NCBI GenBank assembly: GCA_046595695.1
Contig: JBKJOI010000659.1
Coordinates: forward strand, 1-55,818
Origin: Haliangiales bacterium
GTDB lineage: Bacteria; Myxococcota_A; Polyangia; Haliangiales; SHYZ01
DNA length: 55,818 nucleotides
Direction of reading: 5' to 3'
Positions within the stretch are counted from its first letter, which is position 1. Every line of letters begins with the position of its first letter. Below are positions 1,365 to 20,128 of this stretch, piece after piece. Both the position numbers and the translations under genes were made by a program. The notes under the pieces were generated by a model that saw only the letters and a list, made by a program, of their open reading frames with translations, was not told where the DNA came from and did no database searches.

Positions 1365-1843
1365 GGGGTCTCCTCCGGAAGGCGCAGCGTGACCAGGAAC
1401 GAGCGCAGCGCCCGGTAGTCGCGATCGTCGGTGCCGCGGAAGCTCGCGCCGCCCTCGTGGCCGCACCCGCCCGCGCCCAGCGCGAGCGGCTTGCGCAGCA
1501 CCAGGCAATCATCGACCGGCGCGCCCGCGAGCAGCGGCTCGAGCGCGAACGCGGCGACCGTGCGCGCGTTGGCCGCGAGCTCGGCCTCGCTGAGCGGCTC
1601 GGCGAGGAAGCGCCTCTCGGGATCGGCGCGGTGGCGCCCCGGGCTGTAGATCGCGAAGGGCCGCTCGGGGCGGCCGTGGCAGCCGGGATCGGCGCAGTGT
1701 CGATCGAGCACCGGCTGCGCCTCGGCGGCGAAGACCCCCAGGTCGCCTTCGGGCAGGCCGCGCGGTGGCCCCGGCTCGACCGCGCACGCGGCGAGCGCGA
1801 GCGCGAGCGCAAGCGCCCGCAGCGCGAGCGCGGCAGCCCTCAA
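1361..1843 (-). CDS. Lipoprotein with one CX4CH putative heme c domain
   Basis: TTG start overlapping the upstream stop, GGAGG upstream; lipobox LAAC; CADPGCH and LRKPL..GGCGHEGG. Confidence 0.8.
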   Translation of the reverse strand: MRAAALALRALALALALAACAVEPGPPRGLPEGDLGVFAAEAQPVLDRHCADPGCHGRPERPFAIYSPGRHRADPERRFLAEPLSEAELAANARTVAAFALEPLLAGAPVDDCLVLRKPLALGAGGCGHEGGASFRGTDDRDYRALRSFLVTLRLPEETP

Positions 1844-4740
1844 CGCGGCACCTCCACCGAGGGCGCGCGGTAGACCGCGCCCAGATCGATCCAGCGGATG
1901 AAGGCGCGGATCACGGCGTCGTCGAGCGGCGGCACCTCGGCGCCGGGCGGTGGACAGGCCATCGCGAGCACGCGCGGCGCACCCAGCTCGCGCCCGGTGA
2001 TCTTCTCGATGAGGTAGGAGCCCCACGCCGACCCGTTGCGCTCGTCGACATAGCGTTTGCCGCCCGTCGAGCCCGCGCCGAAGGCCTGGAGCTGCTCGTA
2101 GGCCGCGTCGTAGTAGCTCGTCGGCGTGGGCGTCAGCGCCAGCCCGCCCGCCGGGACCGCCCCCGCGTGGCAGCCGGCCACCGCGCAGGAGCGAGCCAGA
2201 CTGGGCGCCAGGTCGCGCCCGAAGTCGAAGTCCTGGGCGCCGAGCGAGCCCACGCGCACCGGTGGCAGCGGCCGGCGCGGGTCACGCCCGGCGAAGCTCG
2301 ACAGGGTCACCGAGGCGGTGGTGACCGCGTCGACGTCGAGCGGCGGCAGCGCGCTGGCCGGATCGCCGTCGAGGGCACCGTGACAGCCCGAGCAGAGCCG
2401 ACCGTAACTCGACGGCTGGGCGCCCTGCGGGAAGCGCTCGCCACCCTGCACCGAGAGCCACAGCAGCGAGGGCTGCCCGGCGGCGAAGCCGGCCGCGTCG
2501 AGCACCTGCATCCGCACCGGCACGCGCGCCGGCAACTCGGCCAGCACGGTGCCGTCGGCGGCGAGCGGCACCTCGCCGAGCAGCGCAAGCGGCAGGTGCA
2601 CCCCGTTCGACCACCACGTGGACGCCGGATCGCCGTTCGCGATCTGTGCCGGGTCGACCGCCGGCACGTCGGCCGGGCGCCAGCTCGGCCAGGCCAGGAA
2701 GCGCGCGTGCGCCGCGTCGGCGCGGAGCGGCTTGGCGCCGATGGGGGCGAGCACCCGGTTGACGGCCTCGTTGACCTGGATGCCGCTGTGCTTGAGCAGC
2801 CCGCTCGGCGAGCCGTCCCAGGCGTCGGCGTGGTCGTCGTCCTCGTCGGGCCGCGCGACCACGAGGGCGGGCTGATCATCGGCCTCGCCGGGTGCGTCCC
2901 ACAGCAGCGTTCGCTCGCCGAGGCGCGCGCCCTCGGGGGTGGCCTCGAGCGTGACGATCCACAGCCCGGTGTCGGGCATGGCGCCCGGGTCGATCGGATC
3001 GATCGGCCCCGGCGCGTGGGCGACCAGCAGCCGGCCGTCGGGGAGCGGCGCCGGATCGCGCCACAGCCCGTCGTCGGCGAGCACGGCCCAGGCGTGGCGG
3101 AAGCCGCCCACGGCGAGCTCGTCCAGGCGCTCGGCCGGTACGTCGGGTCCGAACTGGCGCTCCACCAGCGCCAGCGTCCCGCCCTCCCAGAGATCGTCCA
3201 CGCCGAGCAGCACCGCCACGTCGCGCCCGTCGGGGAGCTCGCGCAGGGTCCACACGATCGGGCGCGGCGCCGTCTGGCCGTGGTGCGGGTGGTACTCGGG
3301 CTGGAGGTGCGCCGTCCGATCGTGATCGGGCGGGAACCGGAACACCGCGCCGCGCACCGCGCCGCCCTGGCGACGCAGGGTCGTGAACGCGAGCGAGCCA
3401 CGGAACTCGCCGGTGGCCAGGAAGCTCGGGGCGAGCTCGGGTGTGGGCGTGAAGGTGAGCCGCACCGGCGTGCCGTCGGGCGCCAGGCGGTAGAGCTCCG
3501 CGTCGGCGCGGCGGCCCGACTCGTCGGCGTGCCCGGCGCGGGTCGAGACGTAGTGGATGGCGTCGCCTGGGCCGTAGACGGGCCAACGGCTGGTCGCGCC
3601 CGCACCCGCGCCGGCGGCGCCGTCGTGGGTCAGCCGCCTGAGGCCACCGCCGTCGATCCCGATCTCCCACAGATCGTGGCCCAGGTCGCCGGCGCGGCGC
3701 ATCGCGAAGGCGACGCGCGACCCGTCGTGGCTCACCGTGGGATCGCGCACATCGGCCGGACCATCGGGGTGGGCCCCGGCGCTGAGGTTGACCGGCGTGG
3801 CGCCGGGAAGCAGCGATGGGTGGAACCACACGTCGCTGCCGGGCCGGAACGCCTCCAGGTCGGCGAGCCCGCGCGGCGAGGCCGGGCCGCGCACGAACAC
3901 GACGCCGACTGGTGCGGGCGCGCCGACATGGCCGAGCGCCGCACGCTCCGCGGCGGCCCAGGCCACGATCGCTGCCGCGCCCGGGTCCTCGAGCGGTTCT
4001 CGGCCATTCACGCGCGGGAAGAAGGCGTCGTTGCCGCCGCGGTGGGGGATGCCGCCGTCGGCGAGCGGCAGGGCCTTGACCAGGAGGCGCGAGCGCGCGG
4101 GGTCGCCGGCGAGCGCGAGCGTGGCGCGCGCGGCCTCGCGGTTGGCGCGGATCTCCGCCACCGAGGGCTCGCCGCCCGCGCCGTCCATCGGCGGCGTGAG
4201 CGGCAGCCCGCCGAACTGCTGCGGGCCGTGGCAGCGCGCCAGCATGCAACCACGGTCGCGCAGCACCGGCAGTACGGTGTCGGCAAACTGCCGCTCGAGC
4301 GGCGTCAGCGCCTCGCGTGGCGATCCCTCGCCACCGTCGGTCTCCATGACCACCCACTCGCGCAGGGTGAGCCAGTCACGGTCGTCGCGACCGAGCAGGT
4401 GTCCGCCGGCGTGCGGCAGGCCGCCCTGGGCGAGCGCCAGCGGCTTGCGCAGGAGGCTCGAGAGCTCGGCGCGCTCGACGGTGTTGATGCGCGCCTTGAC
4501 GTTGGCGCGAGCCGCCGTCCGGTCGTTCACCCGACCGGTGGCATCGACGTCGACGAAGAAGTAGGCGCGATCCACGACCTCGCCGGCGGCCTCGGCACCG
4601 GGCGCCACGCCGTGGCACGCCGGCGCCAGGCAACGGCGCTCGAGCACCGGCACCACGCGGGTCTCGAAGAGCTCGCGCGGCGCCGGATCGCCGCAGCCAC
4701 TCTGCAGGATGACGAGGACAGCCAGACCGAGCGAACGCAC
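1840..4740 (-). CDS. Multiheme lipoprotein with TolB-like propeller and hydrazine-synthase-alpha-like middle domain (copy 1)
   Basis: Lipobox-like LQSGC; CLAPACH, CMLARCH, CSGCH, CAVAGCH; PD40-like DPTVSHDGSRVAFA; EVPLAADGTVLAELPARVPVRMQVLD..CSGCH. Confidence 0.85.
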   Translation of the reverse strand: MRSLGLAVLVILQSGCGDPAPRELFETRVVPVLERRCLAPACHGVAPGAEAAGEVVDRAYFFVDVDATGRVNDRTAARANVKARINTVERAELSSLLRKPLALAQGGLPHAGGHLLGRDDRDWLTLREWVVMETDGGEGSPREALTPLERQFADTVLPVLRDRGCMLARCHGPQQFGGLPLTPPMDGAGGEPSVAEIRANREAARATLALAGDPARSRLLVKALPLADGGIPHRGGNDAFFPRVNGREPLEDPGAAAIVAWAAAERAALGHVGAPAPVGVVFVRGPASPRGLADLEAFRPGSDVWFHPSLLPGATPVNLSAGAHPDGPADVRDPTVSHDGSRVAFAMRRAGDLGHDLWEIGIDGGGLRRLTHDGAAGAGAGATSRWPVYGPGDAIHYVSTRAGHADESGRRADAELYRLAPDGTPVRLTFTPTPELAPSFLATGEFRGSLAFTTLRRQGGAVRGAVFRFPPDHDRTAHLQPEYHPHHGQTAPRPIVWTLRELPDGRDVAVLLGVDDLWEGGTLALVERQFGPDVPAERLDELAVGGFRHAWAVLADDGLWRDPAPLPDGRLLVAHAPGPIDPIDPGAMPDTGLWIVTLEATPEGARLGERTLLWDAPGEADDQPALVVARPDEDDDHADAWDGSPSGLLKHSGIQVNEAVNRVLAPIGAKPLRADAAHARFLAWPSWRPADVPAVDPAQIANGDPASTWWSNGVHLPLALLGEVPLAADGTVLAELPARVPVRMQVLDAAGFAAGQPSLLWLSVQGGERFPQGAQPSSYGRLCSGCHGALDGDPASALPPLDVDAVTTASVTLSSFAGRDPRRPLPPVRVGSLGAQDFDFGRDLAPSLARSCAVAGCHAGAVPAGGLALTPTPTSYYDAAYEQLQAFGAGSTGGKRYVDERNGSAWGSYLIEKITGRELGAPRVLAMACPPPGAEVPPLDDAVIRAFIRWIDLGAVYRAPSVEVPR

Positions 4741-4776
4741 GCCTGGCTCTTATGCCCGATCCCCGAGGGCAACATC

Positions 4777-4790
4777 ATGACCGCCGTCAA
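4777..4790. promoter_or_regulatory. FNR-type box between divergent genes
   Basis: ATGAC-CGCC-GTCAA; centre 41.5 nt before GTG 4825 (+) and 43.5 nt before GTG 4740 (-). Confidence 0.7.
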
Positions 4791-4824
4791 TGTCGCACCA
4801 GGTAGTCCGTGCCAGCGTGAGCCC

Positions 4825-5592
4825 GTGCACAGGTCGGACCCGTCCGGCGCGCTCGCGCTCACGCTCACGCTCACGCTCACGCTCACGCTCACGCTCGCGC
4901 TCACGCTCGCGCTCGCCGCCTGCTCGAGCGAGCCGCTCGTGGCTGGCGACGCGGCGGCTGTGCCCCGGGATGCGGGCACGGTGGACGACGGCGGCATCGC
5001 GTGTCCGGCCGGGGGCGTGCGCGGCCGCGGACGCCATCGGCTGTTCGTGCAAGGGCACGGCGGCGAGCCGTACCCCGACGGCCGCTACCCATTCCTGCAC
5101 CCATGGAGCGCCGGCGGCGGCGACGCACCGCTCTGTGACGACGCGGTGTTCGTCGAGGATACCGACGGCGACGGCCGGTGGCAGCCCGGCGAGGCGCCGC
5201 GCCCGCTCGGCCCCGCCGCGCTCGTGCACGGTGAGCACTTCCTCGTCGGTAGTGGTGCCTTCGTCGAGCTCGCGATCACTCTCTGCGACGACATCACCGG
5301 TGACGTGGCGCTGTACATCCCCAACTTCGACGAGGCCGGCAGCCGCGCGCTGCACCAGCTGTTCGTGGTCCACGACGGCGAGGAGCGACTTGTCGCCGAG
5401 GCCGTCGACGACGAAGCCGGGCAGAGCGGCTACAACCCGTTCGTGCGGGTGCTCGCGGGCATCGACCCGCGCGCAACGCCCGGCGACACCTTGCTGCTGC
5501 GCAGCACCAACCTGAACGGCATCCCCTTCTCGGTGATGGTGTGGCAACCGCCCAGCGAGTACGAGTCGTGGATCCTGGTGGAGGTCCCGTGA
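4825..5592 (+). CDS. Hypothetical lipoprotein
   Basis: Real portion of ORF 1765..5592; signal with (LT/LA)n then LAAC; acidic DTDGDG motif; GTGA overlap with the next gene. Confidence 0.75.
   Translation: MHRSDPSGALALTLTLTLTLTLTLALTLALAACSSEPLVAGDAAAVPRDAGTVDDGGIACPAGGVRGRGRHRLFVQGHGGEPYPDGRYPFLHPWSAGGGDAPLCDDAVFVEDTDGDGRWQPGEAPRPLGPAALVHGEHFLVGSGAFVELAITLCDDITGDVALYIPNFDEAGSRALHQLFVVHDGEERLVAEAVDDEAGQSGYNPFVRVLAGIDPRATPGDTLLLRSTNLNGIPFSVMVWQPPSEYESWILVEVP
4851..4916 (+). repeat. Tandem hexamer (GCTCRC)x11 in signal-peptide coding region
   Basis: Counted directly; encodes LALTLTLTLTLTLTLALTLALA. Confidence 0.9.
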
Positions 5593-6173
5593 CGCGCACG
5601 TCCCATCGACGGCTCACCCGGCTCGCCGCCAGCCTGGTGCTCGCGAGCTGCGGCACCGACGCCGGCGACGACCCGCTGCGCAGCGCCGACGCTGGTCCGC
5701 CACCCGATGCGGCGGTCTGTCGCGACGCGGGCGTGCTCGAGCTCGGCGCCTGCCGGCTCACCGAGGGACAGACCTGCCAGGGCCGCGCCGGCGAGGAGCG
5801 TCACTTCGAGACGCTGCCCGAGGGCGGCGCGATGACCATCGTGCTCGGGCCGCAGGGCTCGACCATGTTCGTGTTCTCGGCCCGCACCGCGGGCATCGTG
5901 CCCGGCGATCCAGCCCAGCCGGCCAGCCCCGACAACCCGCTGATCGAGATCCAGGTGTTCGACGACCAAGCCGCGCTGGTCGCGCGTTACCGCGGGCGCG
6001 CGGCGTTCGCGACCGACCCCGGTGTCGGTGGGCTCACCGCGACTGGGCTGTTCGTGGTCGTCGACGGCCCGGCCAGCGCATTCATCGGCCGACGCCTGCG
6101 CGCGATCGCTACCCTCACCGATCGTGACCACGCCGTGCGCTGTGGCGGCGCCTCGTTCGTGGCCGAGAACTGA
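5589..6173 (+). CDS. Hypothetical lipoprotein
   Basis: GTG overlapping the previous stop; LASC lipobox; LGPQGSTMFV motif. Confidence 0.7.
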   Translation: MTRTSHRRLTRLAASLVLASCGTDAGDDPLRSADAGPPPDAAVCRDAGVLELGACRLTEGQTCQGRAGEERHFETLPEGGAMTIVLGPQGSTMFVFSARTAGIVPGDPAQPASPDNPLIEIQVFDDQAALVARYRGRAAFATDPGVGGLTATGLFVVVDGPASAFIGRRLRAIATLTDRDHAVRCGGASFVAEN

Positions 6174-6241
6174 CCGGGGTCAAGCCGGCGGGCCATGCGC
6201 GAGCGACTTCTGGCCCACGACTGGGGATGCGCTTTCGCCGA

Positions 6242-6835
6242 TCAGGGCACCGCTTCAGGTCTCTCGCTCGGGTCGCGACTCGTCGCCGCTCCTGGTTTCG
6301 CCACGATCAGCGCAGCGAAGATCTCGGCTCCGAAGCGGTCGACCTGGGCCCAGTCGGTGAACTCGTAGTCCTGGCTGGTGTCGACGGGCCGGCCCTGCGA
6401 GCGACCGATGAGCTTCATCATCAGCCGGGTGAGCCAGCCGTACTGCGTGTAGCGCAGCGCTCCGCCGAACGTCGCGATGTGCGCGGGTTGCCAGTGCACC
6501 CGGGCAAGAAAGGCCGCCACCATCTGATCGAGCCCCTCGCGCACCGAGGCCCGCCGCGAGCTGGCCGACATGCTCACCGAGAAGAATGCGCCCGCCCGGG
6601 TGGCTAGCCTCGGAGCATGGCGCTTCAGCCATCTCTCGATGGCGGCGTGATGGCGGCTCATGTGCACCGGTGAGCCCACGATGACCGCCTCGAAGTTCCT
6701 CGGATCGGGTCGTTCGTAGGCGGCATCGGCGAGATGCACGCGCAGCCCGCGCGTTCGCAGCGTCTCGGCGATGCGGGACGCGATCGTGCGAGTCTGGCCG
6801 TGGCGCGAGGCGAACAGGACGAGGACGCGGGTCAT
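6242..6835 (-). CDS. hemG: Flavodoxin-domain protoporphyrinogen IX dehydrogenase (HemG-like)
   Basis: ASRHGQTRTIA FMN loop; FGGALRYTQY; DTSQDYEFTDWAQVDRF. Confidence 0.85.
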   Translation of the reverse strand: MTRVLVLFASRHGQTRTIASRIAETLRTRGLRVHLADAAYERPDPRNFEAVIVGSPVHMSRHHAAIERWLKRHAPRLATRAGAFFSVSMSASSRRASVREGLDQMVAAFLARVHWQPAHIATFGGALRYTQYGWLTRLMMKLIGRSQGRPVDTSQDYEFTDWAQVDRFGAEIFAALIVAKPGAATSRDPSERPEAVP

Positions 6836-6953
6836 CAGGACCTCCGGACTTTCGCGCAGGCAACGGCCGTTCGACCTCGGCGGAGCGCGCGTGGCTCCGC
6901 CGGTTCCGCGGCTCTCGTGGGCGCCGCCAGCCGCATTTCAGGCTCGTACCGGC

Positions 6954-6969
6954 AGCATGCAAAGAGCCA
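6954..6969 (-). promoter_or_regulatory. sigma54 -24/-12 motif upstream of hemG
   Basis: TGGCTC-TTTGC-ATGCT, 118 nt before the start. Confidence 0.45.
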
Positions 6970-7225
6970 CCGATGGGAAGGGGCGCGCGCTGCGGCCGAG
7001 CACGAAGTGGTGCGACCAGAGTGCGCCGCCCGCGATCGCCAGCGCCCAGATGACGGGACAGCCACCACCTGCCCGCGTGGCGCAGCGTCACCAGCGGGAA
7101 CGGGGGGTTGCTGCCGGCCATGAGCAGGCCGAGCTCGCGGCTGCGGCGCGTGGCGGTCTGACTCGATCGGGCCTTCCATCGAAGTTGCCACGCTCGACGT
7201 ATATCCCCCGCCCGGCCCCGGCGAG

Positions 7226-7277
7226 TTGACCGCGATCATGCCGGGCGCCGTCGTGGCACAAGGATGACCGAGGTCAT
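7226..7277. promoter_or_regulatory. Two FNR-like boxes in a degraded region
   Basis: TTGAC-CGCG-ATCAT (7226-7239, centre 41.5 nt before GTG 7191 on -) and ATGAC-CGAG-GTCAT (7264-7277). Confidence 0.55.
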
Positions 7278-7774
7278 CAGCGACGGCTCCATTGCCAGTC
7301 GCCCTTCGCGTCACCACCGCGGCGGCCGGCGGCAGCGGCGCCATCGACGGACAGATACCGAGCCGTATCGCCAGCCGCCGCGCGTGCTCGTCGAGATCCT
7401 CCAGGAGGGCCTGCCCGAGCCCGGTGAAGCGGCCGCCCTGGAGACGGACCGCCTGTCCGGTCGCTCGGCTCTCTTGCTCACCCTGCATTGCGGTGCACGG
7501 TGCGCAGCAAGCCCGGTTGCTGGAGCATCCCGGTGCGCCCGAGCGCGCGGTGGGCGCGGGACAGGAGCGCCGCGCCCGCCTCCTTGGCACGCTCGACGGG
7601 CGCGGGCTCCCCGGTGAAGCGGATCACGTCGCGGCGGAGCGTGATGGCGCGCGCCCGCGCCTCAGCGGACGGGGCGACAGAATGGCCGCGGTGAGCGCCG
7701 AGCGAACGGACCTGGACGATCGCGGCACCCCTGAGCGTGCTCAGAGGGCGCGCACGATCTGCGCTACCTGGCGA

Positions 7775-8197
7775 TCAGGACGCAACTCGTGCGGTGGTCT
7801 CGTTCGTTGCGGACGTGGTCACGGTCAGCTCCGGTGGATCGAACAGCGTCTTCTTCACCTTGCACGCGGCCGCGGCGCGCGCGACCGCCTCGCGATACTG
7901 GGTCGGGAACTCGGGCGGGACCTGGACGTCGAGGGTGACGCGCGCCAGCCGGCCGGTCTTCGCGTCGTGCTCGCTGCGTTGGACCAAGCGGATGTTCTCG
8001 GTCGGGATGTCCCGGGCACGGCAGAAGGCCGCCACGTACAGGCCCGCACACGTGCCGAGGGAAGCCAGAAAGAGTGTGAATGGCTCCGGTGCACTGCCCT
8101 CGCCACCACTCTCCCGAGGCTGATCGGTGTGCAGGGTGAACCCGTTCACGTGCGCGTCGACGCGCTTGCCGCCGGGAAGGGTGACGATGATCTCCAT
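7775..8197 (-). CDS. OsmC-family protein
   Basis: TDQPRESGGEGSAPEPFTLFLASLGTC...CKVKKTL. Confidence 0.9.
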   Translation of the reverse strand: MEIIVTLPGGKRVDAHVNGFTLHTDQPRESGGEGSAPEPFTLFLASLGTCAGLYVAAFCRARDIPTENIRLVQRSEHDAKTGRLARVTLDVQVPPEFPTQYREAVARAAAACKVKKTLFDPPELTVTTSATNETTARVAS

Positions 8198-8209
8198 GGT
8201 CTGGTCTCC

Positions 8210-8225
8210 TGCATGATGAGAGCCA
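8210..8225 (-). promoter_or_regulatory. sigma54 promoter
   Basis: TGGCTC-TCATC-ATGCA, 12 nt before ATG 8197. Confidence 0.6.
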
Positions 8226-8272
8226 GCTCAGGCTGGAAGGGTTCGGCGAGCGGTCGAACAGGTGCCGGGGCG

Positions 8273-8731
8273 CTAGCGCGCCAGCAGGATCACCTGCCCG
8301 AGCGGATCCAGCTGGCCCTCCTCGACGCACGCGGCACACGCCTCCTCGGAACGAGTGCAGCCGCGACAGCGCGCCAGGCTCTCCCGCGCCTGGATGAGGT
8401 CGTGTCGGGTGCGCGACAGCACAGCGATACGCTCGGTCAGCCGCCGCGCTGCGTCGCTGATCACGTCGAATGTCGCCGCGGCGATGGGTCCGGGGCCGAC
8501 GCCGCCATCCCGGACGGCCAGGATCGACTGGATGCGCGTCAGCGTCAGGCCGCCGGCCTGCAGGGTCAGGATTGCACGCACCCGCCGGACGACCTCGATG
8601 TCGTAGCTTGGCCCTCGCGAGGTCAACGGGCGCGCGATGAGCCCGCGCGCCTGCAGGCGCCGGATGGTCTTGCGCCCGCACCCTGCCATTCGGGCCAGGT
8701 CACCAGTGGAGTAGCGCCGAGGAGTTCCCAC
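8273..8731 (-). CDS. MerR-family regulator with C-terminal Cys cluster
   Basis: YSTGDLARMAGCGRKTIR HTH; GLTLTRI; CRGC..CAAC. Confidence 0.8.
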   Translation of the reverse strand: MGTPRRYSTGDLARMAGCGRKTIRRLQARGLIARPLTSRGPSYDIEVVRRVRAILTLQAGGLTLTRIQSILAVRDGGVGPGPIAAATFDVISDAARRLTERIAVLSRTRHDLIQARESLARCRGCTRSEEACAACVEEGQLDPLGQVILLAR

Positions 8732-8806
8732 ACATCACATGGTGCGCCGAGCGCGCGCGCCACTCAACCTCGGCGACGTACCGATGGGCGACTTGACGAT
8801 CGACAA

Positions 8807-9520: not shown

Positions 9521-9533
9521 GCCTCACGGCTCA

Positions 9534-9549
9534 AGCAGTGAATGTGCCA
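9534..9549 (-). promoter_or_regulatory. sigma54 promoter
   Basis: TGGCAC-ATTCA-CTGCT, 13 nt before ATG 9520. Confidence 0.75.
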
Positions 9550-9709
9550 CGGTGGCGTGACACACGCCCACCATCGCGCGCCCCGGATTTCCTCGAAAAA
9601 TCGCCGCGGCGACCTGGCCCCTGGGGCCAGGCGCGCGCGCCGTTCGCCCCACCGAACCATGGCCGACTGTCCTCAGCCTCACGCCACCCGCGGCAAGCCC
9701 CGCTTCGCT

Positions 9710-10777: not shown

Positions 10778-10791
10778 TTGACGGGCGTCAA
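10778..10791. promoter_or_regulatory. FNR box (symmetric half-sites)
   Basis: TTGAC-GGGC-GTCAA; centre 41.5 nt before ATG 10743 (-), with CACGAT at -12..-7; downstream ORF is a 49-aa remnant. Confidence 0.8.
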
Positions 10792-13034: not shown

Positions 13035-13328
13035 CCGGCACCAGCATCCGCCTCGTGGGGCAGGTCTCTCAGCCTATCTCAGGTTGGGCGAGGGCCGTGC
13101 TCGCCATCGACTCGCCTGCACGAGGCGCCGCGAACGGCCGTTCGACTCTGGCATGCGCAGCAAGCGATGCTCGTTGAACACGGATGGGGTACGAGCTCCC
13201 AGTCGTGGTCGCGTGCTGTGGTGCGTCAAGTGCGCCGGGAACGCGGCCATTCGCGATCATGCGAGCTGATCGCGCGAAAGTTTGGCGCTTTGGCGGCGTA
13301 GGCCGCAAATGATGCAGGTCCAACGACG

Positions 13329-13344
13329 TGGCACATCAGGTGCA
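13329..13344 (+). promoter_or_regulatory. sigma54 promoter
   Basis: TGGCAC-ATCAG-GTGCA, 13 nt before ATG 13358. Confidence 0.75.
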
Positions 13345-13357
13345 TCGAAGCAATGGC

Positions 13358-13594
13358 ATGGCGTACCGACTCGTTACCTGTCCCGAGACGGCGCACCTCG
13401 AGTTGCTGGAGTACGAGGTGGACCCACTGGGCGTGTTGGTTCAAGCCTGCTCGCGGTTCGGTTCATCGCGTGACGTTCATTGCCCCCGAACCTGCGCCGC
13501 ACGCCTCGATCGCTGTGAACGCGCCTGCTCGGTGGCCGAGGATGACGACGATGTGGCCGAGGAGCGCACCGAGGTCGAAGTCGATCAGCTCTAG
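13358..13594 (+). CDS. Small Cys-rich protein with acidic tail
   Basis: MAYRLVTCPET..ACSRF..CPRTC..CERAC; has its own sigma54 motif. Confidence 0.7.
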   Translation: MAYRLVTCPETAHLELLEYEVDPLGVLVQACSRFGSSRDVHCPRTCAARLDRCERACSVAEDDDDVAEERTEVEVDQL

Positions 13595-13619
13595 GGCCGG
13601 GCCGCGTGGGCCGCGCTCG

Positions 13620-14400
13620 CCCACGCGGGCAGCTGGCGACCGCGATCGGCTTGCGCAGGAGCAGGCTGTGCCGGGCCTCCGATACGTCGAGCAGGAACGC
13701 CGAGGCCTGCATGTGATTGTGGGCGAGCTCCTCCTCGGTCAGTGGCGCATCGAGGTAGGTATCCTGCGGCCGCATCCGGTGCTGGTGCACCGCGAACAAC
13801 GAGAGCGGGCGAGCCGCCGCCCCATGGCAGCTCGCGTTTGCGCAGCGCTCGGCGAGGATCGGCTGCGCCTTGGCGACGAGGCCGTGGTGAGCGCGTCCGG
13901 GGCCTCCAGCTCGGGCGGGCGTCCGCCCACGCCCTCGGGATCGCCGTGGCATGCCGCACACCGCGAGCCGTAGCGGCGAGCCCCCGTCGCCACCGACAGG
14001 CCCTGTACCAGCGTCTGCCCTGGCAAGAGGTAGTACCAGCGGTTGTGCATGGCGCCCACGGCCATGCGCGCGGCATCGAGCGCCTGCAGCCGGAAGGACA
14101 CGCCCACCGGCACGCGCGCCTGGAAGCTGCCGTCGGCCGCGACCGGCAGCTCGGCGAGCACGCGTGCCGGCCCGTGTCGCCCCAGCGCCGCCGAGGTCGC
14201 GCCGGGCGTACCCGAAAGCGTGTCCTGGGCGGGCACGGGCGACCGATCGGCTGGGCGCATCGCCCGGTGCTCGACCAGGCGAACGAACGCGATATCCGCG
14301 CGCACGCGCCCGAGGGCGGCAGGTTGGCCAGCCGCCCCGGCCGCCGCGAGGCCCCCACGTACGGCCCCTCGTCCATGGAGGTATTGACCCCACGAGCCCC
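13620..14400 (-). pseudogene. Decayed copy of the HzsA-like plus CX4CH-cytochrome gene pair
   Basis: ELPVAADGSFQARVPVGVSFRLQALD..CAACHG joined out of frame to AQPILAERCANASCHG..SLLLRKPIA; boundaries approximate. Confidence 0.8.
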
Positions 14401-14842
14401 CGCTCTCCGACGGTGACGCGAGCGCGAAGCGTACGCAGGAGCCCCAGATCGCGACGGTACACGAGGGTGCAGTCGACCGCATGCGGAGGTACGTCGTGCC
14501 CAAACGCCTGCCCAGGCTCATCATCTTCGTCCCGCTCTTCCTCGGCGCCTGCAAATCCAGGCGCGCTCCCCGTCGTGGGCAACAACGAGTGCGCCGATCC
14601 ACCCGAGTTGCCCTACGCGTGCGCGGGGGCGTGTTCCCCTGCGAGTGCGTCGACCTACGCGTGCGCGACGCCCGCTGACCCCGCGCACCGGGCGCGACTT
14701 GTCGATCGTCAAGCCGGAGACCCGCGCATCGGTCGGCTCCTCGATCAACTCCTCGTGAGCGCGTCGTTTCTCGCTAAGCTCAGCAGCGCGACACGATGAT
14801 GCCGTCCTTCACGTCCTCCACGCCCTTCCGCGAGCCCACGTC

Positions 14843-15350
14843 GTGACCACCGCGCTCGTCCGCCGCGATGCGCGCTCGAACGCCTTCCTGGCCGACTGAC
14901 CGCTCCGCCAGCACGCCGCGACCCGCGGCGGCCATCCGGCCCTGGTGCTGGGCGAGCGCACGCTCGGCTATGCCGAGCTCGACGGCCTCGCCGACCGCGC
15001 GGCCGAGGTCCTGCGTGCCGCGAACGTGCGCCGCGGCGATCGCGTGCTGCTCGCGCTCGACAACGGACTCGCGGCCGTCGTGGGATTCTACGGGGCGCTG
15101 CGCGCCGATGCCGTCCCGATGCTGCTCGGGGCGCCCCGGCGGACGCACCGCGTGGTGCGCGTCGCCGCGCTGGCGGAGCCGGCGGTGCTGGTGGCAGACG
15201 CACCGATCGAGGGCGTCTCGGCGCCGTGGCTCGCACCCGCCGCGTCCATCGGGGCTCGACCACTGCATCCAGCCTGCCAGGTCCCGGCGGGGCCCGTCCG
15301 CTTCTCCTCGTCCACCGACCTGCCCTTGCCCTTGCCTGTCCTTGACCGAC
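14843..15350 (+). pseudogene. N-terminal remnant of an AMP-binding acyl-CoA ligase
   Basis: In-frame TGA at 14897; HPALVLGERTLGYAELDGLADRAA..VRRGDRV..GALRADAV, then similarity is lost. Confidence 0.7.
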
Positions 15351-15395
15351 GACAAGGCGGGGCGCTGCGCCGGCTGCTATGCAGAGAGACCCCTC

Positions 15396-16583
15396 ATGAA
15401 CCATGCGATGAAGCCCTTGCGCATGCCGTATGCCGGCAGAGATGTCCCGCACGCCGTGATCGAGGTCAATCAGCGGTGCAACATCTCGTGCGCCGCCTGC
15501 TACAAGGACAAGTCGACGTACACGAAGCCGCTCGCCCAGGTGCTCGACGAGATCGCCCTGGTCACGTCCGTGCGCAACATCGGTGTGCTGTCGCTGGCCG
15601 GCGGTGAGCCGACGCTCCACCCCGATCTCCCGGCGATCATCGCGTCGATCGCTCGACGAGGCATCCAGGTCCAGTTGCTCACCAACGGGCTGAACCTCAC
15701 CGACGAGAAGCTGGCCACGTACAAGGCGCACGGGCTGGCGCGGGTGTACCTGCACATCGACTCGCTCCAGAGGCGCCCCGACGCGCGCCGGGTCGAGCGC
15801 GAGTCCGACCTCACCGTGCTGCGCGAGCAGATCGCCGAGCGCGTCGTCCGCTGGGGGATGCGCTGCGCGCTGACGGTGACGCTCTACCGGACGAAGAACC
15901 TGCAGGACCTGCCGGCCCTCGTCGAGCAGGTCCTCGACAGCCGCTTCATCGATCGGCTGCTGGTCACCTGCTGCACCGACTTCGCCGCGATCGACGCCCG
16001 GCTTCGCGAGCTCCAGTGGCTCCCCGCCTCCGTGGCCGAGCCCCCCGGCGACCTGAGCGGCGAGGTGGTCTCGAACGACGACGTCACGCGCGCGCTCACC
16101 CGGTTCGGGATGAAGCCCTTCGCATACGTCGCCTCGGACCGGAACCTGGACGACATGCGCTGGCTCTTCTACTACTCCTTCACCGCGCGCACACCGGCCG
16201 CGGCGCTGCGATTGCTGCATCTCGGCCCTTCCTTCGGGCGGGTCGCACGGGCCGCAAACGCGCTCTCGAAGCGGCTCCGCGGCCGCTTCCCCTTCGGCGA
16301 GACGCTCGGCCGCGGCGGCGCCCTCCTCACCTGCCTCGCCTACGCGGCGACGAGCGGCGATCTCGGTGAGGTCGGCGAGACGCTGAGCTTTCTGCGCGCG
16401 GCGCGCCGCCGGGACGCGCAGCTCACCCAGAAGAGCTTCATCTTCCAGCAAGGGCCCAGCGTGACGGCCGCGGGCGAGATCGAGATCTGCAAGGACTGCC
16501 CCGACGCCACCGTCCGGAACGGTCGCGTCATCCCGGTGTGCCTTGCGGATCTTCTGTCTCCCCAGGCTCCACAGGGAGCGTAG
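15396..16583 (+). CDS. Radical SAM protein of unknown function
   Basis: CNISCAAC, GGEPTLHP, LTNG; C-terminal CKDCPD..PVC. Confidence 0.9.
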   Translation: MNHAMKPLRMPYAGRDVPHAVIEVNQRCNISCAACYKDKSTYTKPLAQVLDEIALVTSVRNIGVLSLAGGEPTLHPDLPAIIASIARRGIQVQLLTNGLNLTDEKLATYKAHGLARVYLHIDSLQRRPDARRVERESDLTVLREQIAERVVRWGMRCALTVTLYRTKNLQDLPALVEQVLDSRFIDRLLVTCCTDFAAIDARLRELQWLPASVAEPPGDLSGEVVSNDDVTRALTRFGMKPFAYVASDRNLDDMRWLFYYSFTARTPAAALRLLHLGPSFGRVARAANALSKRLRGRFPFGETLGRGGALLTCLAYAATSGDLGEVGETLSFLRAARRRDAQLTQKSFIFQQGPSVTAAGEIEICKDCPDATVRNGRVIPVCLADLLSPQAPQGA

Positions 16584-16874
16584 GCGCGGGCGCGACGGCA
16601 GACTCGGCCGGAGTCGGACCCCGCGCGAACGATTTGCGTCCCGCAGAGCTCGCGCCGGTCCGCCAGCGCAAGGGCTGCGCGCCAGCGGCGCCGACCGGCC
16701 TTCCATGCAGCGGCACGACGCGTGCCAGCCTCGTTCGCAAGGTCGCCGACGATCCCAGGAACGGCTGACCGAGCGTCGCACGCACGCGTCGCGAGGAGGG
16801 TGGGGTGAGTCACGACATGGGCGGCTCAGCTCTTCACCGTCACGCTCCGCGACAACAGCGAGCGCGAGGAGACG

Positions 16875-17064
16875 GACGAACGGACGCGAGCTCGCGGCGC
16901 GGCTGCGCGCGCTCCGGCCTGGCCTCAAGGTCGTGCTCACCAGCGGCTACAGCGATGAGCTCGCCGGCCGCGAGCTGCACCAGCAGCCCGGCCAGGCCTT
17001 CCTGCCCAAGCCGTTCGAGATGCGCCAGTTGATCGAGACCGTGCGCGACACCCTCGACGGCTGA
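16875..17064 (+). pseudogene. C-terminal half of a response-regulator receiver domain
   Basis: NGRELAARLRALRPGLKVVLTSGYS..FLPKPF; phospho-Asp half missing. Confidence 0.75.
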
Positions 17065-17131
17065 GGCGCCCCGCGCGCCTACCCTGCTGACGCCGGCCGG
17101 CTTCGCGGTCACCAGCCGCAGGACGTCGGTC

Positions 17132-20128
17132 TCACTCCAGATCGCGCAGGCCGGCGGTGCGCGCCTGGCTGGTCGAGGCCGAGGTGAGCGCGTCGACGTC
17201 GATATGCACGTCCAGCTCACGGCCGCTCACCGAGCCGTGGCACTCGGCGCAGGTCGTCCCGAAGACGCGCTCGGGCACGCCCATGTTGATCGCCTCGCGC
17301 GCGCCGAACTGGAGCTCCTCACGCTGCCGGAACAGCACCTGGCCCTCGTCGTCGAGGAGCTCGATGAGCAGCGGGCGACGGGTGGGCACGCGCAGGTAAG
17401 CCGAGCCATCCGGGAACACCGGCGCCTCGCCCAGCTCGACCCGCTGCTCGAACACCTGCTCGTCGCCGGCGAAGTCACTCACGCACACCGGTGCGTCGGC
17501 CGCCGTGCACTCGAGCGGCGGCGCGGCGTGCGCGAAGAAGCGCACCCTCGTGGCGGCGCGCAGGCCGGTGACCGCGCGGCCGCGCCGGTCGTTGCCGTCG
17601 AGCAGCGTCGCCAGGAGCGGCAGGTCGAGGAAGTGGACGACGGCGAGCGCGTCGGTGGCCTGCTCGGCGTCGGGCGGCTGGCGATCGCGGTGGAACAGCG
17701 GCTCGGGCGGCCGCGGCATCACCAGCACCGCCTCGACCCGCGAGCCCGGGCCCGTCACGAGCGCGCGCCGCGCGCCGGTGCGCGGATCGACCGCCACGAG
17801 ATCGTAGCGCACGGGCGCCTCGGCGCCGACGTCCACGCCCTCGGCGTAAGCGGCCAGCACGGTCCCGTCGGGCAGCATGAACGGTGATCGATAAGCGCCC
17901 GTGGCCTCGCCGGCGCGCCCGGTCGGGCCCGGCAGCACGGTCAGGGAGCGCACGTAGTCGGCATCGATGCGACCCTGCTCGAACGGCCCGACCGAGCGGT
18001 TGAACACGCCCAGCGCGCCGCCCTGGCCGCGGGCGCCCGCGTCGGCGAGCACCACCAGCAGGTTCCCGTCGAGCGCGCTGCGACTCTCGGTGACCTGGGC
18101 GTACCCGATGCTGGGCACGAGCTCGGCGTCGGGGGGGGCCGCCCCGGGCAGGTAGCCGCCACGGCCCTGGTAGCTCTCGGCGCGCTGGCCGACGAGCGGG
18201 TGGTAGTCGCCGAGGTCCCAGTCCAGGCGCCGGCCGGCGATCTGGTAGAAGTCCGCCGACATCTTCTCCGCGGTCATGGTGAGCTGGCCGTGCGCGGTGA
18301 TGCCCGGCTGGGCCTCGACGCCGCGCAGGAAGGTCATGCGCTCGCCGGCGCCCGAGCCATCGGCGCGCTGGCGCCACAGGTCGGCACCCGGAAGCAGGAG
18401 CTTGGGCGTGCGCCGAGGCCCCTCGGGGCCGCCTCGTGAGGAGGCGTAGACGATCCACTCGAGCCCGGCGTCGTCGACCACGTACGTGGGATCGAAGTTG
18501 TGCACGCTCAGGCCGCCCTGGACCTCGCCGCCGTCGAGGGTGATGCGCCGGCAGCCCGAGCCGTCGACGCCGACCTCCCAGACGTCGAGGCCGCTCGCGG
18601 CGCCGACGCGCAGCGCGAAGACCACGCGCGTGCCGTCGTAGCTGGGCTCGGGCGTGCGCACGTCGATCGCGGCACGGTCCGGGCCGACCCCGGCACAGCC
18701 CGCCAGCAGGCTGGTCCGCCCGCTGACCGACGCGAGCGCTGCGTTCGCGCCGAGCAGCGCCTCGCCGCGCACCAGATCGGCGCCGGGACGAAACTCCGAG
18801 AAGTCGACCAGCCGGCTCGCGTCGGCGGGCCGCTCGACCCACACCAGCGGCAGGGTCGTGCCCGCGGCGGCGCCAGCGCGCTGCGACGCGGGTAGCTCCG
18901 CCCGCTCGAGGCGCAACCACTCGGCGAGCGCGCAAACCGGCGGCGAGGTCACGGGATCGTAGGGCGTCGGGCACGCCGCCGGATCGAGCGCCTGCCCGGG
19001 TGTCTCGAGCAGGGCGCCGGCGCGGTGCGCGAGGCCGCCGTGACCTGCCAGCACGTTCTTGGCCACGATCCGGCTGACCCTTGGATTGGGCGAGCCCAGC
19101 GCGAGCAGCGCGCGCGCCTCGCGGTAGTCGATCGCGCGCGCGATCGGCGAGAAGAAGCCGAAGCTGCCCGCGCGCAGCTTGAGCTCGTGCGGCACGACCG
19201 GGCTGTGGCACGCTTGGGCGGCGCAGCCGCGCCGGAGCAGCAGCGGCAAGACCTCCTGGTCGAAGAAGCGCCGCGCGTCGGTGATGTCGGCCTCCGGCAG
19301 CGGCCCCGCCAGGAGGGCCCAGGCCCGCAAGGTCTCGAGGTCGGGGTCATCGACCGCGTCGAACAGGATGCCGCCGCCGTGAGAGCCGCCGCCGAGCTGG
19401 GGCGAGAGCGGGCGACGCAACAGTTCGCTGTCCTCGGCTGGGCTGGCGACGAACGCCCGCGCGACCAGGTAGTTGGCCCTGCGCTGCGGCTCGTCGCTGC
19501 CGCACGCGATCTGCAGATCCAGGCGCCCGCTGCCGTGACACGAGCCCTGGCCGCAACGCCGCACGAGCACGTCCTGCGCCGGACCGAACGCGGCATAGCC
19601 AGGGTCGTCCGCGCCGACCTGGGTGATGTCGACCAACGTCGAGGCCTTGTCACTGCACGCGCCCACGCCGCCCGCGGAGGCGCCCGACGAAGGCGGCGGG
19701 CGCCCGTCACGGGTGGCGCCGTTGTCGAGCCACCGCTTGAGCGTCAGGTACGCGGGGCCGCTCATCTGCAGCACCGCGCCGCCGGCGTGCGTCACCTCGA
19801 GCGGCTGGAAGTCGCCCCGGTACGAGATGTCGAGCTCGCGCGAGTCGACCGCCTTGATGAGCAGCAGCGGCTCCGGATAGGAGCCGTACGGGCGGAGCAG
19901 ATCCTGGCGCAGCAGGAGCGCCTCGTACGAGGTGACGTCCAGGTTGCCGAGCGCCCGGCCCGAGCCGTCGTCCCGGTGGCAGCCCGAGACCCCCGAGGCA
20001 CACCTGGCGAGCAGGAGCGGCTGGATCTGCCGGTCGAAGTAGTCGTGGCGCGGCCGGGTCTCGGCATCGCAGGCGGCCAGGGCCAGGCAGCCGCCGAGGA
20101 CTCCGAGGATCGCCAGGAGTGCGCGCAT
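17132..20128 (-). CDS. Multiheme lipoprotein with TolB-like propeller and hydrazine-synthase-alpha-like domain (copy 2)
   Basis: Start MRALLAILGVLGGCLALAAC; CASGVSGCH, CGQGSCH, CAAQACH, CAECH; PEPSYDGTRVVFA; EAPVFPDGSAYLRVP..IELLD. Confidence 0.85.
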   Translation of the reverse strand: MRALLAILGVLGGCLALAACDAETRPRHDYFDRQIQPLLLARCASGVSGCHRDDGSGRALGNLDVTSYEALLLRQDLLRPYGSYPEPLLLIKAVDSRELDISYRGDFQPLEVTHAGGAVLQMSGPAYLTLKRWLDNGATRDGRPPPSSGASAGGVGACSDKASTLVDITQVGADDPGYAAFGPAQDVLVRRCGQGSCHGSGRLDLQIACGSDEPQRRANYLVARAFVASPAEDSELLRRPLSPQLGGGSHGGGILFDAVDDPDLETLRAWALLAGPLPEADITDARRFFDQEVLPLLLRRGCAAQACHSPVVPHELKLRAGSFGFFSPIARAIDYREARALLALGSPNPRVSRIVAKNVLAGHGGLAHRAGALLETPGQALDPAACPTPYDPVTSPPVCALAEWLRLERAELPASQRAGAAAGTTLPLVWVERPADASRLVDFSEFRPGADLVRGEALLGANAALASVSGRTSLLAGCAGVGPDRAAIDVRTPEPSYDGTRVVFALRVGAASGLDVWEVGVDGSGCRRITLDGGEVQGGLSVHNFDPTYVVDDAGLEWIVYASSRGGPEGPRRTPKLLLPGADLWRQRADGSGAGERMTFLRGVEAQPGITAHGQLTMTAEKMSADFYQIAGRRLDWDLGDYHPLVGQRAESYQGRGGYLPGAAPPDAELVPSIGYAQVTESRSALDGNLLVVLADAGARGQGGALGVFNRSVGPFEQGRIDADYVRSLTVLPGPTGRAGEATGAYRSPFMLPDGTVLAAYAEGVDVGAEAPVRYDLVAVDPRTGARRALVTGPGSRVEAVLVMPRPPEPLFHRDRQPPDAEQATDALAVVHFLDLPLLATLLDGNDRRGRAVTGLRAATRVRFFAHAAPPLECTAADAPVCVSDFAGDEQVFEQRVELGEAPVFPDGSAYLRVPTRRPLLIELLDDEGQVLFRQREELQFGAREAINMGVPERVFGTTCAECHGSVSGRELDVHIDVDALTSASTSQARTAGLRDLE

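Follow-up and report, generated by a model that had tools for sequence, protein, structure and literature searches.

The window analysed here is a stretch of 55,818 nucleotides (nt) that makes up the entire contig C876 of a myxobacterial metagenome-assembled genome (Haliangiales bacterium; 8.19 Mb, 1016 contigs, completeness 93.3%, contamination 5.0%). It encodes two intact lipoproteins, called gene 1 and gene 2, and one relic that resemble HzsA, the alpha subunit of hydrazine synthase (HZS), an enzyme that is regarded as biochemically unique and whose origin is under active debate. We report that gene 1 has the HzsA architecture and belongs to an operon that combines an HZS-like protein with a DUF4266/DUF3570 module. 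Because spurious open reading frames (ORFs) abound in the window (guanine-cytosine (GC) content 66-76%), genes were called by third-position GC. The nearest homologues of the studied genes are in records named Myxococcales, Polyangiaceae and other Myxococcota. There are six HZS_alpha matches in this genome, and we read the non-anammox HZS-like family of predicted exported multi-heme proteins as expanded in it. The main features are the following.

1840..4740, minus strand: gene 1, HzsA-like lipoprotein of 966 amino acids (aa), recognised by HZS_alpha, PDB sequence match, fold and motifs
1364..1843, minus strand: mod1, lipoprotein of 160 aa with a single CX4CH module (CADPGCH, GGCGHEGG), starting with a TTG that overlaps the stop of gene 1
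1137..1364, minus strand: DUF4266 lipoprotein of 76 aa (PF14086, 67.6 bits), ending in a CXC motif (GCGCN)
103..1143, minus strand: DUF3570 protein (PF12094, 129.3 bits); its GTG start at 1143 overlaps the DUF4266 end
17132..20128, minus strand: gene 2, HzsA-like lipoprotein of 998 aa, recognised by HZS_alpha, PDB match and motifs
~13550..14350, minus strand: relic with HZS_alpha, then CAACHG, then a C-terminal CX4CH module; frameshifted and 5'-truncated

HzsA-like proteins and their predicted heme modules

Gene 1 begins with a signal peptide and lipobox, followed by two N-terminal CX4CH modules, a PD40/TolB-like propeller, an HZS_alpha middle domain with the motif CSGCH, and a C-terminal CX4CH module. 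The CX4CH motifs occupy residues 37-43, 165-171 and 852-858 (nt 4612-4632, 4228-4248 and 2167-2187) and the CxxCH motif residues 783-787 (nt 2380-2394). With hmmscan, gene 1 matches Pfam HZS_alpha (PF18582) at 23.7 bits (E 7.2e-5), slightly below the gathering score of 26.6; a six-frame search of the genome gave 26.4 bits, or 28.6 counting neighbouring stretches, and the propeller has a weak PD40 Pfam match. By sequence, membership in PF18582 is borderline, and it is the modelled fold that settles it. The sole match of gene 1 among all PDB sequences is 5c2v_A, the HzsA of Kuenenia (E 1.6e-9), in four collinear stretches from the propeller through the middle domain, where GRICSGCH is aligned with GRLCSGCHG, to the C-terminal domain. 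An AlphaFold model made with 41 homologues as input (pLDDT 91.1, pTM 0.90) has 5c2v_A as its first-ranked Foldseek match (E 8e-29, TM 0.63 on the target, 832 columns), with TolB second (E 7.9e-12). Given the HZS_alpha matches, the sole PDB match and the top Foldseek rank, the HzsA architecture of gene 1 is real and well past chance, and all three HzsA domains (the propeller, the heme alpha-I middle domain and the heme alpha-II C-terminal domain) are present in it. A PF26549 assignment is precomputed for many gene 1 homologues, the window's own protein included.

Gene 2 also begins with a signal peptide and lipobox. Three N-terminal modules (CX6CH at residues 43-51, CX4CH at 192-198 and 302-308) precede a propeller and an HZS_alpha domain with CAECH (CxxCH at 960-964), and the C-terminal domain of HzsA is missing. 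Its HZS_alpha match of 31.5 bits is over the 26.6 cut-off, and 5c2v_A is again the sole match among all PDB sequences (E 0.0011). Aligned with each other (886 columns, E 3e-40), the two proteins share 29% identity. An initial annotation, made from the letters of this DNA, had proposed three HzsA-alpha-like copies with shared motifs, two of them with a TolB-like propeller and three atypical heme domains each, and had suggested that HZS_alpha profiles and structure comparison should recover the HzsA architecture. These proposals hold: the copies lie where it placed them and carry the motifs it described, HZS_alpha is followed by CxxCH in all three, the propeller precedes the middle domain in both intact copies, and the atypical domains number three CX4CH modules in gene 1 and one CX6CH plus two CX4CH modules in gene 2.

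In the 41 full-length gene 1 homologues (38-70% identity) the heme-motif residues are invariant (C37/C42/H43, C165/C170/H171, C783/C786/H787 and C852/C857/H858), as are H110 and H233 inside GG(L/I)PHxGG. The modules N1, N2 and C of gene 1 are mutually homologous (hhalign probabilities 99.5, 97.1 and 95.6%), and it is module C that the alignment pairs with the HzsA heme alpha-II domain (CAVAGCH over CAMCH). We therefore regard the additional domains as duplicated HzsA C-terminal cytochrome domains, judged by sequence homology, in which CxxCH has turned into CX4CH, or into CX6CH in the first module of gene 2. From the invariance and the homology to the heme alpha-II domain we predict heme attachment at these CX4CH and CX6CH motifs. 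CX4CH-type heme attachment has precedent, for example in cytochrome c3.

The HZS_alpha domain of the relic (nt 14012-14284, in the ORF 13739-14602) scores 28.5 bits, over the cut-off. CAACHG lies at 13943-13960 and the C-terminal CX4CH module, at 13821-13844, is in a different frame, which places a frameshift near 13870-13895. Third-position GC switches frame as the motifs do, the coding signal is lost below ~13600, and the relic contains no propeller. On its 5' side it is bounded by a repeat, possibly a mobile element end or a promoter cassette.

14353..14762: repeated element of ~400 nt, with copies on contig C802 (locus L121) at 7080-7379 (92%) and 4280-4384 (89%)

The identity of the relic is 55-68% to the loci L019, L030, L039 and L026, 36% to gene 1 and 28-30% to gene 2. 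Its higher identity to another branch rules out recent copying from either intact gene; because it is closest to a different branch of the gene 1 family, we interpret it as the dead remnant of another gene-1-type paralogue.

The gene 1 operon and its DUF4266/DUF3570 module

We conclude with good confidence that an operon of tightly overlapping genes starts at gene 1 and continues with mod1, DUF4266 and DUF3570. The mod1 protein is homologous to the gene 1 modules N1 and N2 (hmmsearch E 1.4e-15 and 8.3e-11) and has no Pfam or NCBIfam match. The 3' end of DUF3570 leaves the contig and continues on contig C802; at the contig end, the apparent DUF3570 C-terminus is corrupted by a fold-back.

1..102: fold-back assembly artefact, in which nt 1-72 repeat nt 103-174 perfectly in inverted orientation around a 30-nt loop

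There is a 97% match between C802 nt 1-58 and window nt 49-106, and on C802 the DUF3570 frame reaches its end at ...IPW. After the DUF3570 end, C802 encodes a 190-aa lipoprotein with no family match and then an 832-aa lipoprotein, which is 71% identical to the gene following DUF3570 in the closest relative (L009). By sequence and modelled fold, the latter is a fused HzsB-HzsC-like protein, hereafter the beta-gamma-like protein, composed of a YVTN propeller and a predicted di-heme peroxidase-like domain. In its phmmer search of PDB an archaeal YVTN propeller (4.1e-18) ranks ahead of 5c2v_B (2.4e-6) and 5c2v_C (9e-4), and its matches to the NCBIfam models hydrazine_BC, hydrazine_beta and hydrazine_gamma have E-values of 1e-6 to 1e-12, all far under the cut-offs. 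The best Foldseek match of its model is 5c2v_B (2.6e-17, TM 0.71). Both of its CxxCH motifs are invariant in 18 sequences. The operon as a whole has seven c-heme motifs, and all five products besides DUF3570 start with a signal peptide and lipobox.

Gene 1 is not stand-alone, since its operon extends past the contig end to the HzsB-HzsC-like fusion of C802. The initial annotation had seen no hzsB or hzsC and had proposed stand-alone enzymes; the first statement is correct for the window and fails for the operon on C802, and the second is wrong for gene 1. A beta/gamma-type gene in the same cluster is found for gene 1 only, and no beta-gamma-like gene lies near gene 2 or its orthologues. Contig C606 (L124) encodes a 769-aa HZS_alpha protein (23-2326, minus strand; 30.6 bits) and, divergent from it, a 768-aa protein (3836-6142, plus strand) whose C-terminus resembles the beta-gamma-like end; this pair may be a second alpha/beta-gamma-like set.

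Conservation of the operon was surveyed in other Myxococcota genomes. Downstream of the gene 1 orthologue in 37 near-full-length loci we found mod1 in 29, DUF3570 in 26 and DUF4266 in 16. When 36 loci were clustered de novo, a beta-gamma-like gene was recovered in 22/36, ApbE (PF02424, 287 bits) in 10/36 and an AhpC/TSA thioredoxin-like gene in 8/36. These counts are lower bounds, because many loci are cut by contig ends. In one fixed set of 301 genomes of the phylum, which was used for all co-occurrence counts, 38 carry a gene-1-type gene and 35 a beta-gamma-like gene; 34 have both, four are alpha-only and one is beta-gamma-only. Most often a few kb separate the two genes on a shared contig, and we state with good confidence that they are co-inherited.

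We have similarly good confidence that a DUF4266/DUF3570 module is embedded in this HZS-like operon. A Chlorobium DUF3570 was shown by Meheust et al. 2021 (PMC8238504) to be flavinylated by ApbE at two [S/T]GA[S/T] motifs. According to the available text of that paper, DUF3570 typically clusters with ApbE, a thioredoxin-like protein, DUF4266 and sometimes DsbD, was recovered in the insoluble fraction and is linked to iron transporters in some clusters; the same text leaves the function of the system open and names no terminal oxidoreductase. Its main text has zero mentions of hydrazine, propeller, PD40 or Myxococc, and the main texts of two papers on HzsA homologues, PMC12758564 and PMC11828985, do not mention Myxococcota in connection with HzsA, DUF3570 or ApbE. 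In the available text, Myxococcota are not named in the main text of PMC12758564 and are absent from the HzsA phylum list of PMC11828985, where the one 'Myxococc' passage shown concerns NosZ. In the window, DUF3570 and DUF4266 with its C-terminal CXC occur together; the window and C802 contain neither ApbE nor a thioredoxin-like gene. Relatives do carry both in the cluster (e.g., L125, L126 and L130). For the widespread DUF3570/DUF4266 system, the operon thus supplies a first candidate for the role of terminal oxidoreductase.

CRP/FNR-type boxes and linkage to the NOR-type cluster

The palindrome TTGAY-N4-RTCAA occurs three times exactly in the window (0.00 expected), and with up to two mismatches there are 17 FNR-type boxes across it, compared with 1.76 expected. 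Boxes precede both intact HzsA-like genes, as the initial annotation had reported; that of gene 2 is perfect and that of gene 1 has one imperfect arm.

4777..4790: CRP/FNR-type box TTGACGGCGGTCAT with its centre 43.5 nt upstream of the GTG of gene 1; one of its arms is imperfect
20163..20176: perfect CRP/FNR-type box TTGACCTCGATCAA (coding strand), its centre 41.5 nt upstream of the ATG of gene 2

The gene 1 box lies in an 84-nt divergent intergenic region, and perfect boxes are found at the same place in six of the seven closest orthologous loci (L007, L008, L009, L011, L012 and L013). For gene 2, a GATACT hexamer stops 6 nt short of the ATG. Further CRP/FNR-type boxes include those at 10778, 30807, 35579, 43259, 43434 and 50850, several of them 30-50 nt before start codons, a spacing that suggests short or absent leaders and a local regulon. 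Divergent from gene 1, a small lipoprotein gene (~4825-5592, plus strand) contains a CGCTCA hexanucleotide array (4850-4914, 10.8 copies, 93% matches) that is translated into a Leu-Thr repeat in a signal peptide. This gene and the lipoprotein gene at 5589-6173 have no Pfam family and are kept beside gene 1 only in the seven closest loci.

Beyond gene 2 lie regulator genes, a cluster of the nitric oxide reductase (NOR) type and a molybdoenzyme of the dimethyl sulfoxide (DMSO) reductase family.

21618..22765, minus strand: two CRP/FNR-family regulator genes, the first with a cyclic-nucleotide (cNMP)-binding domain only
22898..29861, minus strand: NOR-type heme-copper oxidase cluster of five genes, as follows
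28395-29861, minus strand: polytopic membrane protein with no family match, heading the cluster
27741-28313, minus strand: CuA subunit II, motif CNEFCGIGHHTM
26117-27763, minus strand: heme-copper oxidase subunit I with GHQSQQ
24983-26035, minus strand: SCO1
22898-24979, minus strand: cytochrome b/4Fe-4S/FlpD fusion
36111..42355, minus strand: NarG/NxrA-related type II DMSO-reductase-family enzyme (alpha subunit 38888-42355, beta subunit, NarJ-like chaperone)

The cluster is of NOR type by the criteria of Murali et al. 2024 (PMC11214002, available text), which are the absence of the active-site tyrosine and a CuA-type subunit II: subunit I reads GHQSQQ and lacks the tyrosine, judged at the canonical position only, and a CuA subunit II is encoded. 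A UbiA-type gene lies alongside. The membrane protein at 28395-29861 is kept in all eight other NOR-type clusters fetched (among them L119, L125-L129 and L132). The NarG/NxrA-like alpha subunit carries a twin-arginine signal (SRRLFLK), and its active site would therefore face the periplasm. MoaA is also encoded in this island. Between the NOR-type and NarG-like clusters are genes for a hemerythrin HHE-domain protein (33096-33692) and a DGC-domain protein (30858-31328); proteins of the hemerythrin type often have links to nitrosative or oxidative stress. Outside the window the genome encodes a clade II NosZ and NrfA, and no NirK above the cut-off, no NirS and no hybrid-cluster protein (TIGR01703) were found in this 93%-complete genome. 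The initial annotation was correct that nirK and nirS are missing from the window. From its gene content and its FNR-type boxes, the island is plausibly anaerobic and N-oxide-related. Elsewhere in the window, the gene at 52746-54431 encodes a PSD3/PSD5/PSD4/PSCyt3/PSD2 domain series of planctomycete type (DUF1587, DUF1595, DUF1592, DUF1588 and DUF1585), which is another family of exported proteins of uncharacterised role.

Gene 2 is monocistronic. Its neighbours are a convergent gene for a radical-SAM protein and a divergent one for a DAO-type flavoprotein; the closest gene of the NOR-type cluster is 2.8 kb away and the one for subunit I ~6 kb. In relatives, the usual gene-2-type operon encodes SPOR, MutS, a canonical HZS_alpha protein with two CxxCH motifs, a HEAT-repeat protein, the gene-2-type protein and a 366-aa protein. 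This core operon is conserved in many relatives and no N-oxide genes are nearby. The present genome has its own copy, split over the contigs C646 (L122) and C669 (L123), and gene 2 is thus an additional paralogue. The canonical two-CxxCH protein of the MutS-linked operon is the strongest PF18582 match in the genome (58.6 bits). A quick maximum-likelihood tree puts gene 2 within its own order's clade, at the tip of a long branch (0.97, median 0.31); the careful search for this tree was unfinished, its supports are Shimodaira-Hasegawa-like approximate likelihood ratio test (SH-aLRT) values only, and the second copy of genome G300 (on C20) was left out. We interpret gene 2 as a fast-evolving orphan paralogue of the core MutS-linked copy that was recruited next to the NOR cluster.

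Other Myxococcota place HzsA-like genes beside NOR-type clusters as well (loci L119 and L125-L128), and the linked cases span four families (f1, f4, f17 and f29). In G026 and G197 the NOR cluster directly abuts a full cluster of thioredoxin-like, alpha-like, mod1, DUF3570, beta-gamma-like and ApbE genes. In G032 a NOR cluster, an HZS-like cluster and NarGH-like genes share one contig, the two clusters of G105 are ~35 kb apart on one contig, and in G125, G275 and G300 the NOR cluster is 2.6-4.6 kb from a gene-2-type paralogue. The quick tree places gene 2 of the window and the NOR-linked f4 copies in different clades, and it therefore points to recruitment beside NOR at least twice; orthology between gene 2 and the f4 copies is not supported by it. 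Alpha-like and NOR genes co-occur in 10 genomes where 4.2 are expected (odds ratio 3.7, p 0.0035, uncorrected for kinship), and the association of NarG-like genes with NOR is far stronger (13 genomes versus 2.9 expected). NarGH-like genes are near five of the 37 gene-1-type loci, four of which are close kin. All four relatives tested among those with an HzsA-like gene beside, or on the contig of, a NOR carry a nitrite reductase, NirK in G026, G197 and G032 and NirS in G125. Because of these enzymes, the HzsA-like proteins are ruled out as a general substitute for a missing nitrite reductase, and this part of the role suggested by the initial annotation is unlikely.

Interpretation and comparison with known systems

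With confidence slightly above even, we favour the reading that the locus encodes an HZS-like alpha/beta-gamma complex which is fed by a flavin relay and performs an anaerobically induced conversion of small nitrogen or oxygen species (N-/O-species), gene 2 being a recruited paralogue and the relic dead. The alpha-like and beta-gamma-like proteins would form a membrane-anchored periplasmic redox complex analogous to the alpha-beta-gamma complex of HZS. Electrons would enter via a thiol/flavin relay composed of the thioredoxin-like protein, DUF4266 with its CXC motif and ApbE-flavinylated DUF3570, and would then pass along a chain of bis-His-type CX4CH hemes that ends at two catalytic-type hemes, one alpha-I-like (the CxxCH of HZS_alpha) and one gamma-I-like (in the beta-gamma protein). 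The likeliest substrates would be nitric oxide (NO) or hydroxylamine, with peroxide second. We favour small reactive N-/O-species because of the CRP/FNR-type boxes and the repeated adjacency to a tyrosine-less NOR-type cluster; peroxide is the main rival substrate because the gamma part is peroxidase-like. We infer complex formation, the heme wire, the thiol/flavin feed and the anoxic substrate from gene content and conserved motifs.

Several points weigh against this reading. That CX4CH and CX6CH bind heme is an assumption based on invariance and precedent, and signal peptides and lipoboxes were read by eye. The junction of C876 and C802 rests on the 58-nt overlap, reading-frame continuity and synteny, with no spanning contig; sequencing run X1 gave only short unitigs on window nt 1-2500, none bridging the contig end and no listed piece over the first ~42 nt, and does not inform the junction. 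For the beta-gamma-like model, HzsB beats a generic YVTN propeller narrowly (2.6e-17 versus 2.6e-16), and pLDDT drops to 30-60 in its di-heme half, so that the comparison covers the propeller only. A complex prediction with gene 1 residues 270-830 and beta-gamma-like residues 455-832 scored 0.00 against a mark of 0.32 and gives no verdict. As to the relay, this lineage has neither ApbE nor the thioredoxin-like gene next to the operon (within the genome, ApbE has its best match on C413), and the DUF3570 of the window lacks [S/T]GA[S/T], the aligned site reading SAAS; canonical SGAT or TGAT is present in 6/22 relatives, and SAAS-type loci also carry ApbE. Finally, 28 of the 38 alpha-like genomes lack this NOR and 23 NOR genomes lack an alpha-like gene, and in the first surveys a NOR lay within 10 kb of none of 37 gene-1-type loci and of one of 21 gene-2-type loci. 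The N-oxide island of the initial annotation, and the profiling against NOR that it recommended, are therefore borne out in part: the NOR-type and NarG/NxrA-like clusters, the repeated NOR adjacency and the excess of co-occurrence stand, whereas most carriers have no NOR and the core gene-2-type copy has no N-oxide genes beside it. The link of the HzsA-like proteins to N-oxides is real but partial.

A more far-reaching proposal, which we offer tentatively and consider rather unlikely as a whole, is that a flavin- and heme-wired complex handling NO or hydroxylamine beside NOR is a living example of the function that HZS had before anammox, with the DUF3570 relay as its electron supply and orphan alpha proteins recruited at least twice. 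The locus provides three handles on the ancestral function of HZS, namely a defined operon with a flavinylation relay, CRP/FNR-type control and NOR-type linkage. It ties together two orphan systems, the HZS-like and the DUF3570/DUF4266 systems, and makes the pre-anammox function of HZS testable.

The first alternative to the flavin-fed complex is that of the initial annotation, in which each HzsA-like protein is a periplasmic heme enzyme that works alone on nitrite, NO or hydroxylamine, between a nitrite oxidoreductase or nitrate reductase (NXR/NAR) and the NOR. Gene 2 fits this description, being monocistronic under a perfect FNR-type box and near the NOR cluster without a beta-gamma-like neighbour, an arrangement that recurs in G125, G275 and G300; the lack of NirS, and of NirK above the cut-off, in this genome also agrees with it. 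However, gene 1 is in an operon, and as counted above nearly all carriers in the 301-genome sample have both partners (34/38 and 34/35), the four tested relatives have NirK or NirS, the ancestral gene-2-type copy sits in the SPOR-MutS-two-CxxCH HZS_alpha (type B)-HEAT operon without N-oxide genes, and 20 of the 26 gene-2-type genomes have no NOR. We judge this alternative unlikely.

Of much the same low probability is a peroxide-reducing or MauG-like protein-oxidising complex, in which the di-heme domain of the beta-gamma-like protein would act as a cytochrome c peroxidase (CCP) fed by the alpha-like hemes and the flavin relay. Anaerobic induction of such bacterial peroxidases is known and would account for FNR control. 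The beta-gamma-like protein has weak NCBIfam matches to di-heme families (cytochrome c peroxidase and the MbnH enzyme), and the cluster includes a thioredoxin/AhpC-TSA gene. A near-invariant Trp (W532) is found 38 residues past the first CxxCH, and a Cys-Cys pair 63-64 residues past the second Cys of that motif. By spacing alone, we infer that these correspond to the peroxidase-type Trp and the third heme-linking Cys of non-anammox homologues, in which, according to the available text of PMC12758564, a CCP/MauG-type Trp replaces gamma-His144. On the other hand, the Trp equivalence is one of spacing only, the peroxidase-family matches are far under their cut-offs, and the repeated linkage is to a NOR-type cluster and not to oxidative-stress genes.

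An outer-membrane electron conduit of the porin-cytochrome kind, leading to an extracellular or insoluble acceptor with DUF3570 as the barrel and the lipoprotein cytochromes as periplasmic or surface partners, is improbable. The five lipobox-bearing products and the seven c-heme motifs would suit such a conduit, as would the aromatic residue that ends DUF3570 (...IPW), the recovery of DUF3570 in the insoluble fraction and the iron-transporter links of some DUF3570 clusters (both PMC8238504, available text). Barrel topology and surface exposure are suppositions, however, known conduits are without two catalytic-type hemes and propellers, and no metal-reduction genes were seen nearby.

Hydrazine synthesis itself is very unlikely. 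In HZS, as described in the available text of PMC12758564, Tyr591 is the proximal ligand of heme alpha-I and lies four residues past the CxxCH His, His587 and Cys303 hold Zn, and His772 is the distal ligand of heme alpha-II; the propeller Cys303 is also absent from some anammox bacteria. We took residue equivalences from printed HMMER alignments rather than from the full HzsA sequence, that of the Tyr by ungapped extension. The Tyr591 equivalent is absent: after CxxCH, gene 1 reads GALDGD, gene 2 GSVSGR and the relic GDPEGV, and the gene 1 family consensus is CAGCHGxLxGxP, with no Tyr at or near this position past CSGCH. There is no invariant or near-invariant Cys at residues 270-780 in the 41 sequences (no residue-level superposition on HzsA was made), and HzsA His772 (chain residue 745) falls opposite a gap in the gene 1 alignment. 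With the NCBIfam equivalog NF052339 (cut-off 800 bits), gene 1 scores 42.7 and gene 2 26.2. Because HZS-specific ligands are absent, we expect that no hydrazine is made and that the gene 1/beta-gamma-like system is not an HZS. A cryptic HZS with anammox-type chemistry, of the kind that PMC11828985 proposed in 2025 when it read HzsA-like genes in ten other phyla as hidden anammox potential, has the complete alpha and beta-gamma-like set and the conserved alpha-I-like and gamma-I-like CxxCH motifs in its favour and is nevertheless hardly credible on these grounds, on which an anammox function of such homologues was also rejected in a 2025 article in Genome Biology and Evolution (GBE; PMC12758564, available text) that derives HZS from unknown periplasmic heme proteins. 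HZS_alpha matches in metagenomes should not be counted as anammox potential.

Compared with Kuenenia stuttgartiensis HZS (5C2V), the system shares an alpha protein with a propeller, a CSGCH middle domain and a C-terminal heme domain, and a beta-gamma-like partner encoded in the operon of gene 1. It differs in that gene 1 is only ~18% identical and has no equivalents of Tyr591, Cys303 and His772, the C-terminal domain has CX4CH instead of CxxCH, two or three extra N-terminal copies of the heme domain and lipoprotein anchors are present, and beta and gamma are fused, with alpha first and DUF4266 and DUF3570 between alpha and beta-gamma. TolB/PD40 propeller proteins are the second-best structural match group (E ~1e-11), but the match covers only ~385 of the 966 residues of gene 1, and the TolB N-terminal domain and a Tol-Pal context are missing. 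As in other DUF3570/DUF4266/ApbE clusters, DUF3570 adjoins a DUF4266 with a C-terminal CXC, and ApbE and a thioredoxin-like gene join in relatives; here, in contrast, the module is embedded in an HZS-like operon and the site is SAAS in most members. The NOR-type cluster, a putative NO-reducing system, shares with the B-family-derived NORs (eNOR, sNOR, gNOR and nNOR; PMC11214002, available text) a Gln at the cross-linked Tyr site, CuA, and UbiA-type and SCO1 genes.

The closest resemblance is to the non-anammox HZS-like clusters. The available text of PMC12758564 counts over 600 structural homologues of HzsA and gives a tested function for none of them, which agrees with the view of the initial annotation that HzsA-like proteins outside anammox are uncharacterised. 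The same source describes alpha/beta-gamma clusters of clades I-IV in Planctomycetota, Syntrophobacter fumaroxidans, Paludibaculum fermentans and Opitutus terrae, with an FG-GAP gene between the subunit genes. The myxobacterial system likewise has an alpha gene upstream of a fused beta-gamma gene, a canonical heme alpha-I pocket without Tyr591, no distal His772, probably a Trp-type residue in the gamma part, and an uncharacterised function. Unlike clades I-II, it has no FG-GAP/CRTAC1 gene and instead has mod1, DUF4266, DUF3570 and the 190-aa lipoprotein; it also differs from the non-anammox clades in its triplicated CX4CH modules, in the ApbE and thioredoxin-like genes of the cluster and in its NOR-type linkage. 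The locus thus adds a new make-up to the known, functionally uncharacterised non-anammox HZS-like clusters.

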